From contig CBDCLE010000003.1 of NCBI GenBank assembly GCA_965218585.1, positions 64,001 through 128,000 of the forward strand: 64,000 bases of DNA, in the 5' to 3' direction. The notes beneath the pieces were generated by a model. That model ran no database searches. It had not been told where the DNA came from and was given only the letters and a program-made list of their open reading frames with translations. Positions 7,036 through 19,115 of the stretch are shown here, one piece after another (positions within the stretch are counted from its first letter, which is position 1; each line of letters opens with the position of its first letter). Source of the stretch: Terriglobia bacterium (GTDB taxonomy: Bacteria > Acidobacteriota > Terriglobia > 20CM-2-55-15). A program made the position numbers and the translations under genes.

Positions 7036-8097
7036 CTATGTCGCCAAGTTCAGTTTCTTTGCGTTAAACGTGTCTCCTTTCTTCCACATCTTCAGTGCGG
7101 TCGCTGCAATCTTCCTCGCCAGTGTCAGCCGAGCCATCTCCTTACGCTTGCCGTCTTTCTGGAGCCCCTCCAGGTAGCTTTTCCAAGGTTCGGCCCCCAT
7201 GCCTCCGGTCGCCGCCCCGATGAACACATCTTTCAAACGTCGGTTGCCGTTGCGGTTCAGTCCCCGCGTGGCGATCGGCTTTCGACGACGTACCACACGA
7301 CTCCCTTCCTGCTCATACTCCGCACTCATGTGCATTGCCACGGCCAGACCGCTGTAGTTCCAGAGCTGGCGTTTGGTTCGAAATCGATGCGGGGTGTCCC
7401 CCGTCGCTACAATCAAGGCGCAACGTATCGGTCCCAACTGGGGAATCGTCTGCAATATCCCCACCGCACGATGCTTGCAGCTCTCGGTTAACATCGCCAG
7501 CTTCGCTTTTTTTCTTAACCCTCTCAGATGATCCAGCTCCTCATACAACCATCCGGTACGCCGCCGTGCACCGGTATTGGCGAGCTGTTCGATCCAGTGT
7601 TCCCGCTGCGATGGGAGGTAGACGCCGTGGCCCGGCGTCCGGATCCCACGTCCTCGATACATTGCCTTGATCCGAACCATCGTCCGCTGCGTATCCAGGG
7701 TCAAGGTCTCATATCCGCGGACCAGTTCTTTCAACGTCCGCGTCGCATCGTGCCCGTGGTAGACCGACCGCAGCCATCCGGCCCGGAGCAGCTCGGCCAG
7801 TTTCAGGGCATCCACCCGGTCGGTCTTGGACCCGTCACTGAGCAGTTTGTTCCGTCTGGGATCACACACGATCACTTCGCTCACATATCCCCGGACCACG
7901 TTGTAGAGCCATTCGGCCTGCGTGGTTTCTTCAAACGTCACGTGCAGCTCACCACTCAGACTCTCCAGCAAATCAATGATTGGCCCGGCCTGGGTCTCTA
8001 CGATCTTTTCCCAGACCAGTTTGCCGTCTGCGTTTAAGACCATCACCACCGTCGTTGCCTGGTGCACATCCATGCCGATATACTTGGCCTGTTTCAT
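7036..8097 (-). CDS. IS110-family recombinase/transposase
   Basis: YIGMDVH, TFEE, KTDRVDA (DEDD RuvC-like); TIPQLGP, YSGLA....S, GNRRLK, LARK. Confidence 0.95.
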   Translation of the reverse strand: MKQAKYIGMDVHQATTVVMVLNADGKLVWEKIVETQAGPIIDLLESLSGELHVTFEETTQAEWLYNVVRGYVSEVIVCDPRRNKLLSDGSKTDRVDALKLAELLRAGWLRSVYHGHDATRTLKELVRGYETLTLDTQRTMVRIKAMYRGRGIRTPGHGVYLPSQREHWIEQLANTGARRRTGWLYEELDHLRGLRKKAKLAMLTESCKHRAVGILQTIPQLGPIRCALIVATGDTPHRFRTKRQLWNYSGLAVAMHMSAEYEQEGSRVVRRRKPIATRGLNRNGNRRLKDVFIGAATGGMGAEPWKSYLEGLQKDGKRKEMARLTLARKIAATALKMWKKGDTFNAKKLNLAT

Positions 8098-14186: not shown

Positions 14187-15539
14187 ATGGATAAGAGCCA
14201 GAACCCCGGCGCAGGTGTCGGATTCTTGTCAGATTCCGGTCTCTCGAATTTCCTGGATAACCTTCCAGGTATGGCCTACCGGTGCGCGTGGGACGGTGAC
14301 TGGGCAATGGAGTTCGTCAGTAGTGGAGGTCTTCAACTCACTGGGCATGACCCGGAGGACCTCGTTCGGAATTCCGCAGTCTCATGGAGTGGACTGATCC
14401 ATTCCGATGATCTGGCAAAGGTCACGAAAAGGGTCCGCCGGGCCGTCAAGGACCGCAAACCTTTTCAGGTCGAATATCGCCTGCACACCAGCGGCGGGAT
14501 GAAATGGGTCCTCGAGGAAGGACGCGTGGTGTCGGAACCCAACGACTAACCATACTCCATCGAGGGTTACATCGTCGACATCTCGGAACAGAAAGCACAC
14601 GAAGCCGACCTCACGTACCAACAGGGTCAGACCCTTCTCGCGATTGAAAAGGCCCGGGACGCGTTCCTTGCAGTCGACTCTGAAGGCAAGATCCAGGATT
14701 GGAATCGCCAGTCAGAGCAGACTTTCGGTTGGACGCGCGAGGAAGTTCTGGGGCGGGGAGTGGCCGACACTATCGTGCCGCCGGAGCGGCGGGACGAATA
14801 CCTTGAAAGCTTCAGAAGCTTCATGGAAACCCAGGTAGGCCAGGTTACCTTTCAGAGGCCGAACCTGACCGCCCGCAGGCGCAATGGTGAAGAGTTTCCG
14901 ATAGAGCTCACGATCTGGCCCAGCGACTCCTCTAGCGGACAACTATTCAATAGCTACGTCCACGACTTAACCGAACATCACGCTTTGGAGGGTCAGTTGG
15001 CCAAGGCTGAGGACTCCCTCGAGCGTCTGATGCGAGAGGATTCCCTCACCGGCCTACCCAATCGCAAGGCTCTCGAAGGCGACTTGACACGCTCCATGTC
15101 GTTCGCGCGGAGATGGAAGCAGCCGCTGTCACTGATCATGGCAAATCTCGATACGCTGAAGAGTGTTAACGATGAACTTGGCCGATCCAAGGGGGACGCT
15201 CTCCTTGTGACGTTCGCCGATGCACTGCAGGCTTCGTCCCGTCTCGAAGATTTGACGGCACGGCTTGAAGGTTCAAAGTTCGCCCTCCTGTTGCCCAATA
15301 CCGATCTGGCCAACGCCCGCGTCGTTGCCGATCGCTTGCAGAAGAAACTGCGGGAAGAGGAAATGCCCTCCCAGACGACTATTTCAGCGACGGTGGGAAT
15401 AGCCGAGTTCGATGCCCAGGACACGATCGACACCTTTGTGAGCCGCGCGACGCAGGCGCTGAATCAAGCCAAAGACGGCGGAACAGACTCGGTGGAAGCG
15501 CCCGAAGCGGGGATCGAACAGGTCGGGGAACCCGGATAG
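14187..15539 (+). pseudogene. PAS-PAS-degenerate GGDEF protein interrupted by in-frame TAA (14547-14549)
   Basis: ORFs 14187-14549 and 14760-15539 share a frame; past TAA reads PYSIEGYIVDISEQK... ; active site reads EGSKF. Confidence 0.85.
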
Positions 15540-15577
15540 GAACCTGGCGGTACCGAACGATTGGACACCACTGACTT

Positions 15578-16531
15578 ATGGGAAACGGTTTAACACTGGC
15601 GACGAACCAGACCACTCGCACGAACGGCTTCGATATCACGGAGCTCGTGCAGAACCTTCCTGGTGTCGCTTACAGATGTCGATGGACCGACGCCTGGACC
15701 ATGGAGTTCGTCAGCAACGGGTGCCACCGTGTGACGGGGTACGAACCCGCCGAGATGCTTGGGACGTCCGCCCTGCCCTGGCAGCAGCTTCTCCACCCGG
15801 ACGATTTGCCTCAGATCGCTACCGAGATCACGCTCGCGGCCGAGCAGCGCGAGTCTTTCCAAGTGGCTTATCGCATCTTCACGAAAGAGGGTGCGGAACG
15901 CTGGTTGATGGAAGAAGGCCGTGTCGTCTCGGAGCCGGACGAAGACTGGGTGCGTTTGGAGGGATTCATCTCCGACATCACGTCGCGGAAACAAACCGAG
16001 ATGTCACTTCGGGAAGCCAACGAAACCATTGGTCGCCTGATTCGAGAGGATCCGCTGACCGGGTTGGCCAACAGAAGGGCTCTCGAGGAAAACATGGCAC
16101 GCGCGATATCGTTCGCCCACAGGTGGAAGCACCCGCTCTCGATGATCATGGCGGATATCGACTATTTCAAAACCGTCAACGATCGCTACGGTCATCTGAC
16201 CGGCGACCAGGTCTTGGTTTCGTTCTCTCAATTGCTGAAAACCTCGTCCCGCGTTGAGGACATCGTGGCGCGTTTCGGCGGAGAGGAGTTCATCCTGCTC
16301 ATACCGAACACCGGCCTCGATCAGGCCACACAATTGGCCGAGCGACTCCGAGCCGACACCGAGGAAGCGACCATGCCGATCCCGACGAATATCACTGCAA
16401 GTTTCGGGGTCACACGACTGTTAGCCCAGGACACACAGGAAAGCCTGATCGCCCGGGCCGACCGGGCGCTCTACGGCGCCAAGGACGCAGGCCGGAATCG
16501 TGTTATAACGTTAAAAGACGAGCCGGCTTAG
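15578..16531 (+). CDS. PAS-GGDEF diguanylate cyclase
   Basis: DPLTGLANRR, DIDYFKTVNDRYGH..GD, ARFGGEEF, AKDAGRN. Confidence 0.95.
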   Translation: MGNGLTLATNQTTRTNGFDITELVQNLPGVAYRCRWTDAWTMEFVSNGCHRVTGYEPAEMLGTSALPWQQLLHPDDLPQIATEITLAAEQRESFQVAYRIFTKEGAERWLMEEGRVVSEPDEDWVRLEGFISDITSRKQTEMSLREANETIGRLIREDPLTGLANRRALEENMARAISFAHRWKHPLSMIMADIDYFKTVNDRYGHLTGDQVLVSFSQLLKTSSRVEDIVARFGGEEFILLIPNTGLDQATQLAERLRADTEEATMPIPTNITASFGVTRLLAQDTQESLIARADRALYGAKDAGRNRVITLKDEPA

Positions 16532-16543
16532 CCAATCTCTAAA

Positions 16544-17878
16544 CTACCTCCCCGACCGGATCAAGACCACCAGGCCAAGAACGCTAGCGATTACTGAAGC
16601 CCCGAAGATACCTATTTTCATCATGGCCACCCGGGCCGGTTCCTGGAATGCGAGCCCTCCGATGAAGAGAGACATCGTAAAGCCGATTCCTGCCAGACAG
16701 CTGACCCCATAGACATGAATCCAGCGAACGTTGGAAGGTAACTGTGCCAGGCCCAGACGAACGGCGATCCACGTAAAAAGGGTGACGCCGACCTGTTTAC
16801 CGACGACCAACCCAAGCACAATCCCCAGCGTCATCGGATGACCGATATTTGAAACGGCATCGAGGTCTAAGACGACGCCGGCGTTTGCCAGCGCGAATAT
16901 CGGCAGGATCACGACGCTCACCCAGGGGTGGAGAGCCGTCTCCAGGCGCTGCAGAGGTGTGAGCGAATAGTCGGTTACCATGTCGAGATCCAAGAGTGCG
17001 TCGTGCCGCGTACGGTTAGCCAGAACATGGTGCTCGTGGGGGCCGGCCTGGTCGAACCGGTCGATCATCGCGCGGCTTCGGGAGACAAACTTCCCGGGAT
17101 CCAGACGGATGTTTGCCGGAATCAGCATCGCCATCAACACGCCGGCAACCGTGGGGTGAACTCCTGAGAATAGAAACGCCGACCAGACGCCTCCGACACC
17201 GAAAATGCCATAGACGAGAGGGTTTCTGACGCCGAGCCGATTGAGCAGGGCTACAAACGCAAAGACCCCCGCACCCACGCCGAGGCTGAGATAGGAAATC
17301 TCGGAGGTATAAAAGAGCGCGATCGCGATGACGGCACCCAGGTCATCCGCGATTGCCAGCGATGCCAGGAAAATCTTCAAGGCCGAAGGAACGCGATCTC
17401 CCAGGAGATGAAGAATCCCCATCGAAAAAGCAATGTCGGTCGCGATCGGGATGCCCCACCCCACCGCTTCGGGCGTACCGGCGTTGAAAGCGGCATAGAT
17501 CAAGGCTGGCACGACCATGCCACCGGCAGCAGCGACCAGTGGCAGCGCCGCCAGGCGCGGCGACGACAGTTCTCCGGCCAGCAACTCCCGTTTAATCTCC
17601 AGACCAACGACAAAGAAGAAAATGGCCATCAACCCGTCATTGATCCAGAGCAGCAGCGACTCGCTGACCTCGAAACTGCCCAACTGCAGGGATAAATGCG
17701 TCTCCCAGAGCGCAGTGTAGAGGTCTGTCCAGGGAGAATTCGCCCAGACAAGAGCAACCGCTGCCGAGAGGATCAACAGGATGCCGGAAGAGACTTCAGC
17801 CCGGATGAACATCCGAAAAGGCAGGAGTAGCTTCTCGATCGGGGGGTTTTCTTTGATAAAGAAACTGTCTCGTTTCAT
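16544..17878 (-). CDS. nhaA: Na+/H+ antiporter NhaA
   Basis: WINDGLMAIFF.VVGLEIKRE, GWGIPIATDIAF, LAIADDLGA, GIGFTMSLFI. Confidence 0.96.
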   Translation of the reverse strand: MKRDSFFIKENPPIEKLLLPFRMFIRAEVSSGILLILSAAVALVWANSPWTDLYTALWETHLSLQLGSFEVSESLLLWINDGLMAIFFFVVGLEIKRELLAGELSSPRLAALPLVAAAGGMVVPALIYAAFNAGTPEAVGWGIPIATDIAFSMGILHLLGDRVPSALKIFLASLAIADDLGAVIAIALFYTSEISYLSLGVGAGVFAFVALLNRLGVRNPLVYGIFGVGGVWSAFLFSGVHPTVAGVLMAMLIPANIRLDPGKFVSRSRAMIDRFDQAGPHEHHVLANRTRHDALLDLDMVTDYSLTPLQRLETALHPWVSVVILPIFALANAGVVLDLDAVSNIGHPMTLGIVLGLVVGKQVGVTLFTWIAVRLGLAQLPSNVRWIHVYGVSCLAGIGFTMSLFIGGLAFQEPARVAMMKIGIFGASVIASVLGLVVLIRSGR

Positions 17879-18114
17879 GTCGCTTGGCCAATCGCTTTAG
17901 GACTATAGCTTATCCGGATGCTTCGGCGCATACCCGTTTACCGTCTCACGTTTCGCTTTTTTCCTACTGCGGCGAGAAAGTCCCACCAAATGCACCCCAA
18001 AAAAGCAGGATCGACTACATTTTTTGCTAAAGTTTCTTCAAGAATTGTCGACGGGGTCGGGCTGGGAACCGTAAGCCGATGAAACATATAGAACGGCCAC
18101 TGACGGCTAAACTT

Positions 18115-18130
18115 TGGCAAGCTCATTGCA
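18115..18130 (+). promoter_or_regulatory. sigma54 promoter driving an intergenic RNA
   Basis: TGGCAAGCTCATTGCA, GG-N10-GC; no credible CDS downstream. Confidence 0.7.
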
Positions 18131-18140
18131 ATATATAAAA

Positions 18141-18351
18141 TCGTAACGCGGCAGATTATTAGCCCGTTCGGACCTAGTAGCTTTTAAGGCAAGTCCGGCC
18201 AGGGACGGTAGTCGCAAACGATGAAGTCAGGATGAGCTGCGGGGGCGGAGCCCACGTCGAAAGGATTTCGGAGAGCAGCGACGAGACGTGGGCGATGAAG
18301 GACACTAGGACCAAAACCTGACGACGAACGGATTCGCCATCAGGTTTTTTT
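18141..18351 (+). ncRNA. Candidate CsrB/RsmZ-like multi-GGA sRNA
   Basis: Nine GGA motifs, five in hairpin loops; ends in terminator AAAACCTGA...TCAGGTTTTTTT (18313-18351). Confidence 0.6.
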
Positions 18352-18357
18352 AGTTCT

Positions 18358-18443
18358 AAAAGCGGGGACAGGGCACTCTTTTTGCACGTAACCCGACCAC
18401 CGTCTCCCGATATGGGCAAAAAGAGTGCCCTGTCCCCACTTTT
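18358..18443. repeat. 28-bp inverted repeat (REP-like), one mismatch, 30-nt spacer
   Basis: AAAAGCGGGGACAGGGCACTCTTTTTGC / GCAAAAAGAGTGCCCTGTCCCCACTTTT. Confidence 0.85.
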
Positions 18444-18830
18444 TCAGCTCGACTTCGTTATCGTGAAGTCGCCGTTCACGTTGTCGTGACTCCAACTCCC
18501 CTTGATCGTATCCCCGTCGAGAGTCCCTTCTATGGTGTAGTGGATCTCTCCGCGGAAGCTCTGGGCATCGGCTTCCATCTTCACCATTCCTGTCGCAGGG
18601 TCAAATGAAGCGTTGCTCAACTCGATCGCATTCGGTCCGGGGTTCACGACCCCCTTGAGAGAGCTTCCATCCCATGTCAGCTCGACGACAACGTCGTTAC
18701 GGTCATATTGGCTGGGACCCCAGTCTCCATACCAGGTTCCTGTAACGGGATCGGACTGTGCCAGGGAACCGGGAACCGCCAGTGAAACAACCAAAATAAA
18801 ACAGACCAGACTCAGAGCACTCGCTCTCAT
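18444..18830 (-). CDS. Secreted hypothetical beta-rich protein
   Basis: GGAGG RBS, signal peptide ending SLA, VTGTWYGDWGP. Confidence 0.8.
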   Translation of the reverse strand: MRASALSLVCFILVVSLAVPGSLAQSDPVTGTWYGDWGPSQYDRNDVVVELTWDGSSLKGVVNPGPNAIELSNASFDPATGMVKMEADAQSFRGEIHYTIEGTLDGDTIKGSWSHDNVNGDFTITKSS

Positions 18831-19115
18831 GAAACCTCCATACCAAAAAAACAAGAATCAGCGGCCCCTGATGACTTGAAGGCGGGGGCGACTGTTCAAA
18901 AATTGTAGCACTGTCAGTCAGGGAGCCGGGCAGAGTAGTGTACTCCAAGCTTTTGCCCTCGACGTCCTCAAGGACGTACCCAGCACACACACCCGCGATT
19001 TCTAGGTTCCGTACCTAGCGCGATTTGCAGCCTTAATACATTTGATCCGCTCACCCCGACGGGCCTAGAATAGTCACTCCTTTATCTTTGCATGGCTATA
19101 TTCGGAGGTTTGAGG

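Follow-up and report, generated by a model that had tools for sequence, protein, structure and literature searches.

The window analyzed here, 64,000 nucleotides (nt) of contig CBDCLE010000003.1 from the Terriglobia bacterium assembly GCA_965218585.1, carries on its plus strand the gene for a small RNA (sRNA) of about 211 nt. Comparative analysis of its sequence defines a new RNA family that is confined to one family of the Terriglobia, with a predicted sigma-54-dependent paralog at this locus. We consider it very probable that the locus encodes a real sigma-54-driven small RNA, its dependence on rpoN being predicted. For an Acidobacteriota-like genome, an earlier note on this DNA had proposed an unannotated sRNA that lacks a credible coding sequence, is driven by sigma-54 and ends in a Rho-independent terminator. 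At the level of sequence this proposal is borne out, the RNA having transcription signals of its own. The note also took the RNA for a sponge that titrates CsrA, a reading that is plausible.

A DNA search of the window genome and 60 relatives recovered homologs over the full length, 74-88% identical, in three genera, where two or three of them often stand in tandem. It also recovered a more distantly related second copy, both in the window genome itself (G000:C20) and in most of the family's genomes. With the covariance model R1, the RNA was found in 31 of the 35 genomes of this Terriglobia family (22 of the 25 high-quality ones), with exactly two copies in the window's genome. In a sample of the class (151 genomes), 17 of 20 family genomes besides the window's own contained it, compared to 0 of 130 genomes from twelve other families, in a search with Infernal's stricter filters, under which weak matches can be lost. 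Weaker R1 matches (29.8-70.1 bits) represent distant paralogs, nine of which we analyzed. The relatives that bear homologs are assigned to Terriglobia, Solibacteraceae and Candidatus Sulfopaludibacter (Acidobacteriota). A 20-nt core pattern matched 27 stretches of a public genome collection, several of them in unrelated phyla and probably due to chance. A cmscan of positions 17800-18500 against all 4227 families of Rfam 15, up to E = 10, found no match apart from weak hairpin look-alikes on a neighboring inverted repeat, and thus no Csr/Rsm family of the kind the earlier note had in mind. Likewise, the whole window had no Rfam match at gathering score, and eight homologous loci had no match. 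The elements of the locus are given below; conservation counts refer to 46 distinct copies of the RNA.

18010..18053, plus strand: upstream activator-type dyad, ATCGACTACA ... AATTGTCGAC, centered about 109 base pairs (bp) before the predicted start, from the alignment of 18 sigma-54-class copies.
18071..18086, plus strand: conserved block between dyad and promoter, GTAAGCCGATGAAACA here and CTAACTCGTTGNATTC in other genera, from the alignment.
18115..18130, plus strand: sigma-54 -24/-12 promoter TGGCA-N6-TTGCA (TGGCAAGCTCATTGCA), GG at 18116-17 and GC at 18128-29.
18141..18351, plus strand: small RNA of about 211 nt, start predicted from the -12 element; R1 score 141.8 bits, E 5.6e-39.
18146..18167, plus strand: 5' hairpin ACGCGGC-loop-GCCCGU, sigma-54 class only; present in the predicted fold, with the stem kept and the loop varying among aligned copies.
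18173..18177, plus strand: 5' strand of helix P1, CCUAG, partner 18305-18309; one pair is UA in 23 copies and CG in 19.
18193..18196, plus strand: 5' strand of P2, GUCC, partner GGAC at 18300-18303, which contains GGA 18300.
18197..18215, plus strand: invariant segment GGCCAGGGACGGUAGUCGC, hairpin P3 (GCC-AGGGAC-GGU) plus its 3' flank; candidate pairing seed, with GGA 18203.
18211..18222, plus strand: 5' strand of P4, partner 18285-18296; double-sided changes in 8 of 10 pairs.
18228..18232, plus strand: junction motif CAGGA, unpaired, with GGA 18230; GGA in 43 of 46 copies and 8 of 9 distant paralogs.
18237..18240, plus strand: 5' strand of P5, CUGC, partner GCAG at 18275-18278, enclosing P6 and P7; double-sided changes in 4 of 4 pairs.
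18242..18253, plus strand: hairpin P6, GGG-GGCGGAG-CCC, loop GGA 18247; GGA in 45 of 46 copies and 7 of 9 distant paralogs.
18257..18271, plus strand: hairpin P7, UCGAA-AGGAU-UUCGG, loop GGA 18263; 5 of 5 stem pairs covary, GGA in 42 of 46 copies and 8 of 9 distant paralogs.
18316..18351, plus strand: Rho-independent terminator, stem 18316-18345, T-run 18345-18351, loop GGA 18330; double-sided changes in 11 of 12 pairs.

Copies of the RNA fall into two classes by their predicted promoters. In class 1, to which the window copy belongs, GG-N10-GC stands at a fixed distance in 18 of 18 copies, and the spacer varies. Because a fixed-distance TGG-N10-GC with a variable spacer is the signature of sigma-54, we assign this promoter to the sigma-54 type, and the box lies in the window where the earlier note had placed it. 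About 105-137 bp upstream of the TGG, these copies share a dyad, TCGACAACA...TTGTCGA, that is matched by a regular expression in 17 of the 18. A profile of the dyad finds only the window locus in the 4.55-Mb genome (E 1.1e-10; next best E 2.3). The position of the conserved block at 18071..18086 suits a DNA-bending site like that of integration host factor, a role it may play. A simple promoter scan of the window also reported an overlapping sigma-70-like match (TTGGCA-16-TAAAAT, 10/12), the -10 element of which is not kept in the other class 1 copies of the alignment. Class 2 promoters are of the sigma-70 type, with an A-tract followed by TTGnnn-17-nAnAAT in 22 of 25 copies. The class 2 copy of the window's genome (G000:C20:61648-61834, locus L071; R1 157 bits) has an A-tract and a TTGAAA-17-AACAAT promoter.

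The genome encodes rpoN (186 bits), and the combination expected of a Qrr-type sRNA, namely GG-N10-GC, an upstream activator site and rpoN in the genome, is present in the sequence. The earlier note had also counted sigma-54 activator genes among the contents of the window, and here it was mistaken: PF00158 (Sigma54_activat) has 13 matches in the genome and none on the window's contig, and the 15 window open reading frames (ORFs) that were scanned include no flagellar or sigma-54 activator gene. Nor do the sigma-54-class copies have a consistent activator neighbor, with PF00158 matches 5.5 to >30 kb away in five genomes. Four sigma-54 activator genes scoring 214-217 bits (G007:C1:2203697, G017:C1:1816435, G026:C38:247207 and G013:C7:1319838) lie 6-12 kb from the class 2 RNA gene in the genera g4 and g10. 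They are likely orthologs, given their similar scores, and their proximity to the RNA may be mere synteny.

The predicted fold is supported by covariation. Its consensus was annotated manually on 43 sequences in a plain MAFFT alignment, in which 88.7% of cells are paired, compared to 78.3% in shuffles and 31.8-46.0% with partners slid, and double-sided changes occur in 31 of 47 pairs. After realignment of the 46 distinct copies with R1, which leans towards the model, the values are 93.0% and 33 of 47. In this fold, P1 (CUAG/CUAG) is the closing helix, and P2 shows a compensatory switch between the classes, from CUCC:GGAG in class 2 to GUCC:GGAC in class 1 (CG 27 / GC 18). The P3 hairpin GCC-AGGGAC-GGU (GCCAGGGACGGUAGUCG) and its flank are invariant or nearly so in the 46 copies. 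P4 and P5 enclose P6 and P7, two small hairpins with a GGA in each loop. The Rho-independent terminator reported earlier, with its T-run to 18351, is supported by both folding and covariation and is missing from the list of a simple terminator scan.

The sole ORF inside the RNA encodes 29 amino acids (MSCGGG..., 18232-18321). It is not conserved: its ATG context occurs in 13 of 46 copies, and the frame diverges after about 10 codons even within the genus. We therefore rejected a small-protein gene, in agreement with the claim that the body of about 210 nt holds no credible coding sequence. A leader or riboswitch acting in cis was likewise rejected, because the RNA has its own terminator, converges with the next gene and occurs in tandem copies.

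The nine GGA motifs start at 18170, 18203, 18230, 18247, 18263, 18270, 18300, 18308 and 18330, exactly as previously listed. Beyond the sites in the junction, P6 and P7, GGA is kept in the P3 loop (18203) in 44 of 46 copies, in the P2 strand (18300) in 45 of 46 and in the terminator loop (18330) in 26 of 46. The RNA thus has conserved GGA in loops or unpaired linkers on stems that covary or are invariant, an arrangement expected of the Csr/Rsm group. Five GGA hairpins had been claimed, and four can be recognized in the consensus, with P3 invariant and P6, P7 and the terminator covarying; the fifth, TCA-GGA-TGA, falls outside the consensus fold. The nine distant paralogs retain the P3, junction, P6 and P7 GGA in 8, 8, 7 and 8 of 9, while their AGUCG flank and P2 decay. 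Because these four sites persist at this distance, they are the deepest conserved feature of the family.

Following the suggestion of the earlier note, we looked in the genome for csrA, fliW and rpoN, and all are present. There are two CsrA homologs, with PF02599 scores of 78.3 and 59.5 bits (cut-off 27). The canonical CsrA has the usual YRYE motif and adjoins fliW and a flagellar hook-associated/flagellin-like gene. The second is a divergent paralog (G000:C10:195292-195525, locus L002) that matches the Pfam model over positions 1-43 only and ends in a Pro/Glu-rich tail; its consensus over 21 genomes reads MLIIsRKkdQKIIIaDDIEITILEiGRNRVRFGIkAPKhV.IHT(R/K). CsrA of either kind occurs in 33 of the 35 family genomes. 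Matches to the divergent paralog above 50 bits are restricted to the family that has the RNA (15 of the 21 sampled, including the window's genome). The best score outside is 35.6 bits, and other families have only 27-36-bit matches to canonical CsrA (4/20 in f3, 11/19 in f5). In genus g3, clear RNA copies occur in one genome only, G028, which also encodes the paralog and flagellin. Both proteins are missing from the four remaining g3 genomes, of which three give no match to the RNA and the fourth, G006, a weak one of 70 bits. In G005, the RNA and the divergent paralog are present, and flagellin and canonical CsrA are absent. The flagellin 5' leaders of relatives contain a hairpin-loop A(C/A)GGAU and a Shine-Dalgarno (SD) sequence, CACGGAGGA, that resemble the RNA's own loops. 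This is the classical layout of a putative CsrA target. Whether the RNA itself binds a CsrA-type protein is a close call, and we regard such binding as quite possible.

P3 has complementary partners. The 13-mer complement of the segment, TACCGTCCCTGGC, occurs 72 times in 31 of the 35 genomes, compared to 3 times for a reversed control, and 28 of the occurrences are outside the RNA genes. Sixteen of these 28 form the tip of a homologous unit, in which a long hairpin and a terminator follow a GTATTTTT-GAC promoter, in the genera g4, g7, g8, g9, g10 and g11. Seven others (in G009, G016 twice, G028, G006, G003 and G034) are coding-looking, unclear or unexamined and were not counted as partners. 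The window's genome has such a partner RNA within G000:C12:214258-214482 (locus L222; profile E 3.4e-25), with the loop CGACACCGUCCCUGGCUGA. The RNA itself spans about 214290-214436 of that contig and has a TTGACA-type promoter, a long hairpin and a terminator. By BLAST, the partner is present in 12 of 12 genomes of g1, g4 and g10, and homologs occur in 21 of the 35 family genomes. Neither its homologs from other genomes nor the flagellin 3' untranslated region (UTR) matched an Rfam family above gathering score, and what scored lower were weak look-alikes of hairpins or terminators. A third context of the 13-mer complement was seen in genus g4, at G029:C8:1243034 and G026:C38:175541 (L188 and L190). 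There, the site is preceded by CTCTTCAGTTTTGACGATAAAGAGG, which resembles half of the sigma-54-class upstream dyad.

We also searched the whole genome for the complement of the invariant 18-mer, allowing up to 3 mismatches, and found 3 non-self sites, roughly as many as chance would yield. Among these is a site that lies approximately 20 nt past a flagellin stop codon, in the flagellar region that also holds csrA-fliW, and forms the exposed part of a hairpin, GGGGGCGA...CCGUCCCUGGCC...UCGCCCCC. This 3' UTR site is present in 11 of the 35 genomes, from three genera (5/5 in g1, 4/5 in g4 and 2/2 in g10), as a complement of 12-20 nt in an otherwise diverged UTR. When the duplex energy of the whole RNA with the flagellin 3' UTR was calculated, 481 of 600 random windows scored as well. 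The two partners differ at one position. All flagellin sites have ...CCCUGGCC, which fits the G of class 1 (CCGGCCAGGG), while in g1, g4 and g10 the partner RNA has ...CCCUGGCU, which fits the A of class 2 (CCAGCCAGGG), a difference that may hint at specific class-partner pairs. The RNA thus carries an invariant seed with complementary sites in other RNAs, as a Qrr-type regulator does, with pairing predicted, and Hfq is encoded in the genome. In our view, pairing between P3 and its two candidate partners, the second sRNA and the flagellin 3' UTR, is fairly likely. Because P3 is complementary to both, base pairing would be at least part of the mechanism. This is what the sponge-only proposal had overlooked: P3 and its AGUCG flank are complementary to the apical loop of another sRNA and to the flagellin 3' UTR hairpin.

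These observations can be joined in a dual mechanism, which we put forward tentatively as the likeliest of the readings considered: a trans-acting sRNA whose GGA loops bind a CsrA-family protein and whose P3 pairs with other RNAs. Judging from the conserved DNA signals, an enhancer-binding protein on the dyad about 110 bp upstream would activate sigma-54 at the -24/-12 box, and transcription would stop at the RNA's own terminator. In the covariation-supported fold, the closing helices P1 and P2 hold the invariant P3 together with the P4/P5 helix, which presents P6 and P7. The A/N-GGA motifs of the P3, P6 and P7 loops and of the junction would then bind a CsrA-family protein, either the FliW-linked CsrA or, more likely, the family-restricted divergent paralog, and the RNA would titrate this protein or use it as a helper. 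Meanwhile, P3 and its flank would pair loop-to-loop with the tip of the second sRNA and with the hairpin just past the stop of one flagellin gene, and this pairing would tie the RNA to the flagellin/CsrA circuit. In its most extended form, which we regard as rather unlikely, the proposal describes a Csr-type circuit of new design outside the Proteobacteria, in a host that has FliW. The sigma-54 RNA and its sigma-70 sibling would sequester the divergent CsrA, gated by a P3 kissing-loop with the anti-RNA and the flagellin 3' UTR. Flagellin mRNA level, the signal of the enhancer-binding protein and CsrA activity would thereby be wired together at the same loop.

Several observations weigh against this dual mechanism. 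The GGA count does not exceed chance, with 9 motifs compared to 7.17 +/- 1.76 in dinucleotide shuffles, 43 of 200 of which reach 9, and most family members likewise have no excess over shuffles. Three of the nine GGAs are unconserved (18170, 18270 and 18308 are lineage-specific), and GGA 18300 is base-paired in P2 rather than in a loop. The divergent CsrA has T44 instead of arginine, with a basic residue at 45 and no C-terminal helix; in CsrA, R44 is the key residue for contact with RNA. Few independent events underlie the co-distribution of RNA and paralog, which also has exceptions, since in G026, G019 and G020 the RNA is present and no paralog was found, and in G032 the reverse holds. The flagellin site is missing from most RNA-bearing genera. 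In the window's genome, the flagellin ORF (L115 1369-2440; G000:C2:384936-386007) lacks the MSFSV start and the leader of four relatives, and it has no ATG, GTG or TTG near the N-terminus. Because the start and the CsrA-type leader of its orthologs are absent, this ORF may be a dead gene truncated at its 5' end. Base pairing could by itself, without a protein, account fully for the invariance of P3. Finally, the start, the end and the expression of the RNA are predictions.

If protein binding is set aside, the RNA becomes a purely base-pairing riboregulator of the Qrr kind, which acts only through P3 and its flank on flagellin mRNA and other targets. The second sRNA would be its sponge or partner, the GGA loops would be structural or incidental, and an Hfq-type chaperone would serve in place of CsrA. 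Such an RNA fits the invariant 17-19-nt segment common to all paralogs, the exact complement of this segment at hairpin tips in two unrelated RNA contexts, and the tandem multi-copy arrays and sigma-54 promoter with its dedicated upstream site, as well as the presence of Hfq and a GGA count no higher than chance. It leaves unexplained that 42-45 of 46 copies retain the GGAs of P6, P7 and the junction on covarying stems, and that most distant paralogs retain them as well, with a decayed AGUCG seed flank. In addition, the 3 non-self sites found with up to 3 mismatches include, besides the flagellin 3' UTR, no seed-complementary site near a gene start in the genome. We consider a mechanism by pairing alone somewhat unlikely, though second only to the dual one.

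The CsrA-sponge interpretation of the earlier note is retained in part. Conserved GGA loops, CsrA homologs and a family-restricted paralog speak for it, while the GGA count, the Rfam result and the promoter, which is not of the GacA/UvrY-type, speak against it. The multi-GGA architecture stands in its four conserved GGA loops and not in the number of motifs. A classical sponge of the CsrB/RsmZ type and nothing more, in which complementarity would serve at most for turnover, is in our view improbable. Conservation in P1, P2, P4 and the invariant 19-mer extends far beyond what the presentation of GGA needs, conserved complementary partners exist, and no Csr/Rsm family of Rfam matches. The canonical CsrA also already has FliW as an antagonist, and according to one review (PMC7652899), fliW is anti-correlated with the regulators of sponge RNAs. 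These points outweigh, in our judgment, the conservation of four to six GGA sites that lie in loops or unpaired stretches, the CsrA proteins encoded, the several paralogs per genome as in RsmX/Y/Z and the loop motifs like the flagellin-leader sites. Less probable still is a structured RNA for another protein or ligand without CsrA or pairing, or a small-protein gene or cis-acting leader: an elaborate multi-helical, covariation-supported fold with invariant nucleotides would suit the first, but the complementary partners and conserved GGA loops would be left unexplained, and the RNA is neither coding nor a leader for the reasons given above.

The sRNA lies inside a gap of 565 bp between two minus-strand ORFs. 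One of these (16544-17878, minus strand; Pfam E 1.3e-148) is the gene of an NhaA-type antiporter, and the other is an ORF of 136 amino acids (18444-18854, minus strand) that has no Pfam match and is convergent to the sRNA. Between the sRNA terminator and the stop of this convergent ORF, positions 18358-18444 form an 87-nt near-perfect inverted repeat (AAAAGCGGGGACAGGGCACTCTTTTTGC ... GCAAAAAGAGTGCCCTGTCCCCACTTTT), probably the terminator of the 136-amino-acid ORF gene or a two-way terminator, with weak microRNA-like look-alikes as its only Rfam matches. Upstream of the antiporter gene are two adjacent GGDEF diguanylate cyclase genes (14760-16531), the second with a PAS domain, and an IS110-family transposase is located at 7036-8097.

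Acidobacteria are among the most abundant soil phyla, and to our knowledge hardly any of their regulatory RNAs have been described. By title or abstract opening, we found no CsrA-related or sigma-54-driven sRNA of Acidobacteria in the literature. The locus offers a sequence-defined test case that combines sigma-54 and sigma-70 sibling RNAs, a dedicated activator site, a family-specific CsrA paralog, an anti-RNA and a site in a flagellin 3' UTR. If CsrA binding is true, it would widen the range and logic of Csr systems; if pairing alone is true, the RNA and its partner would be a new pair of riboregulator and sponge aimed at a hairpin in a 3' UTR. In both cases, the R1 covariance model serves the annotation of these genomes.

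Several known systems share some of these features. In Vibrio, Qrr1-5 have a sigma-54 promoter with an activator site, multiple paralogs and an invariant base-pairing stretch. The window RNA is similar in its sigma-54 promoter and activator-type site, its multiple copies and its invariant stretch. However, it is about twice as long and unrelated in sequence, has no Rfam match and contains conserved GGA loops. Furthermore, its seed lies in a hairpin loop, and its partners are another sRNA and a 3' UTR rather than 5' leaders. Neither the Qrr covariance model nor the GlmY/GlmZ family models of Rfam 15 match it. The genes glmY and glmZ have overlapping sigma-54 and sigma-70 promoters. Enterobacteria have these two homologous sRNAs in each genome under different control (PMC2267818, PMC4152352). 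The RNA described here likewise forms a homologous pair under different control, and its window copy also has an overlapping sigma-70-like match, but the sequence is unrelated and that match is not conserved in the other copies.

With CsrB/CsrC and RsmX/Y/Z, the RNA shares its non-coding nature, its own terminator, several paralogs per genome and CsrA-family proteins encoded alongside, as well as A/N-GGA in short hairpin loops, including the terminator loop, and in single-stranded linkers. Unlike that group, it has no Rfam match and only 4-6 conserved GGA sites, set in a rigid covarying multi-helix fold with an invariant 19-mer. It also has conserved complementary RNA partners, its host has FliW, and its binding of CsrA is a prediction. 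Where the Csr/Rsm RNAs are under GacA/UvrY-type control from a sigma-70 promoter, we found a sigma-54 box and a different dyad of its own. The review cited above (PMC7652899) treats CsrA sponge RNAs as a feature of Gammaproteobacteria and says that FliW-type organisms are thought to do without them.

An RNA with both activities has precedents. McaS of E. coli is a base-pairing sRNA that is reported to bind and antagonize CsrA through GGA and acts on motility and biofilm genes, GadY is a base-pairing RNA reported to antagonize CsrA, and CsrA may aid RNA-RNA interactions, all according to PMC7652899. Unlike the RNA described here, McaS is sigma-70- and Hfq-dependent in E. coli, and its sequence is unrelated; both activities of our RNA are predicted. 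The closest parallel on the side of flagellin is the circuit of flagellin mRNA, CsrA and FliW in Bacillus and Campylobacter, the latter being described as having CsrA control without antagonizing small RNAs (PMC4894983). As in that circuit, the csrA-fliW pair adjoins flagellar genes, the flagellin leaders of relatives have a hairpin GGA and an SD GGA, and a flagellin mRNA is part of the predicted RNA network. The Terriglobia system differs from this circuit, for which no antagonizing sRNA is known, in its sRNA, which has GGA loops and complementarity to the 3' UTR of flagellin, and in its additional, divergent CsrA paralog.

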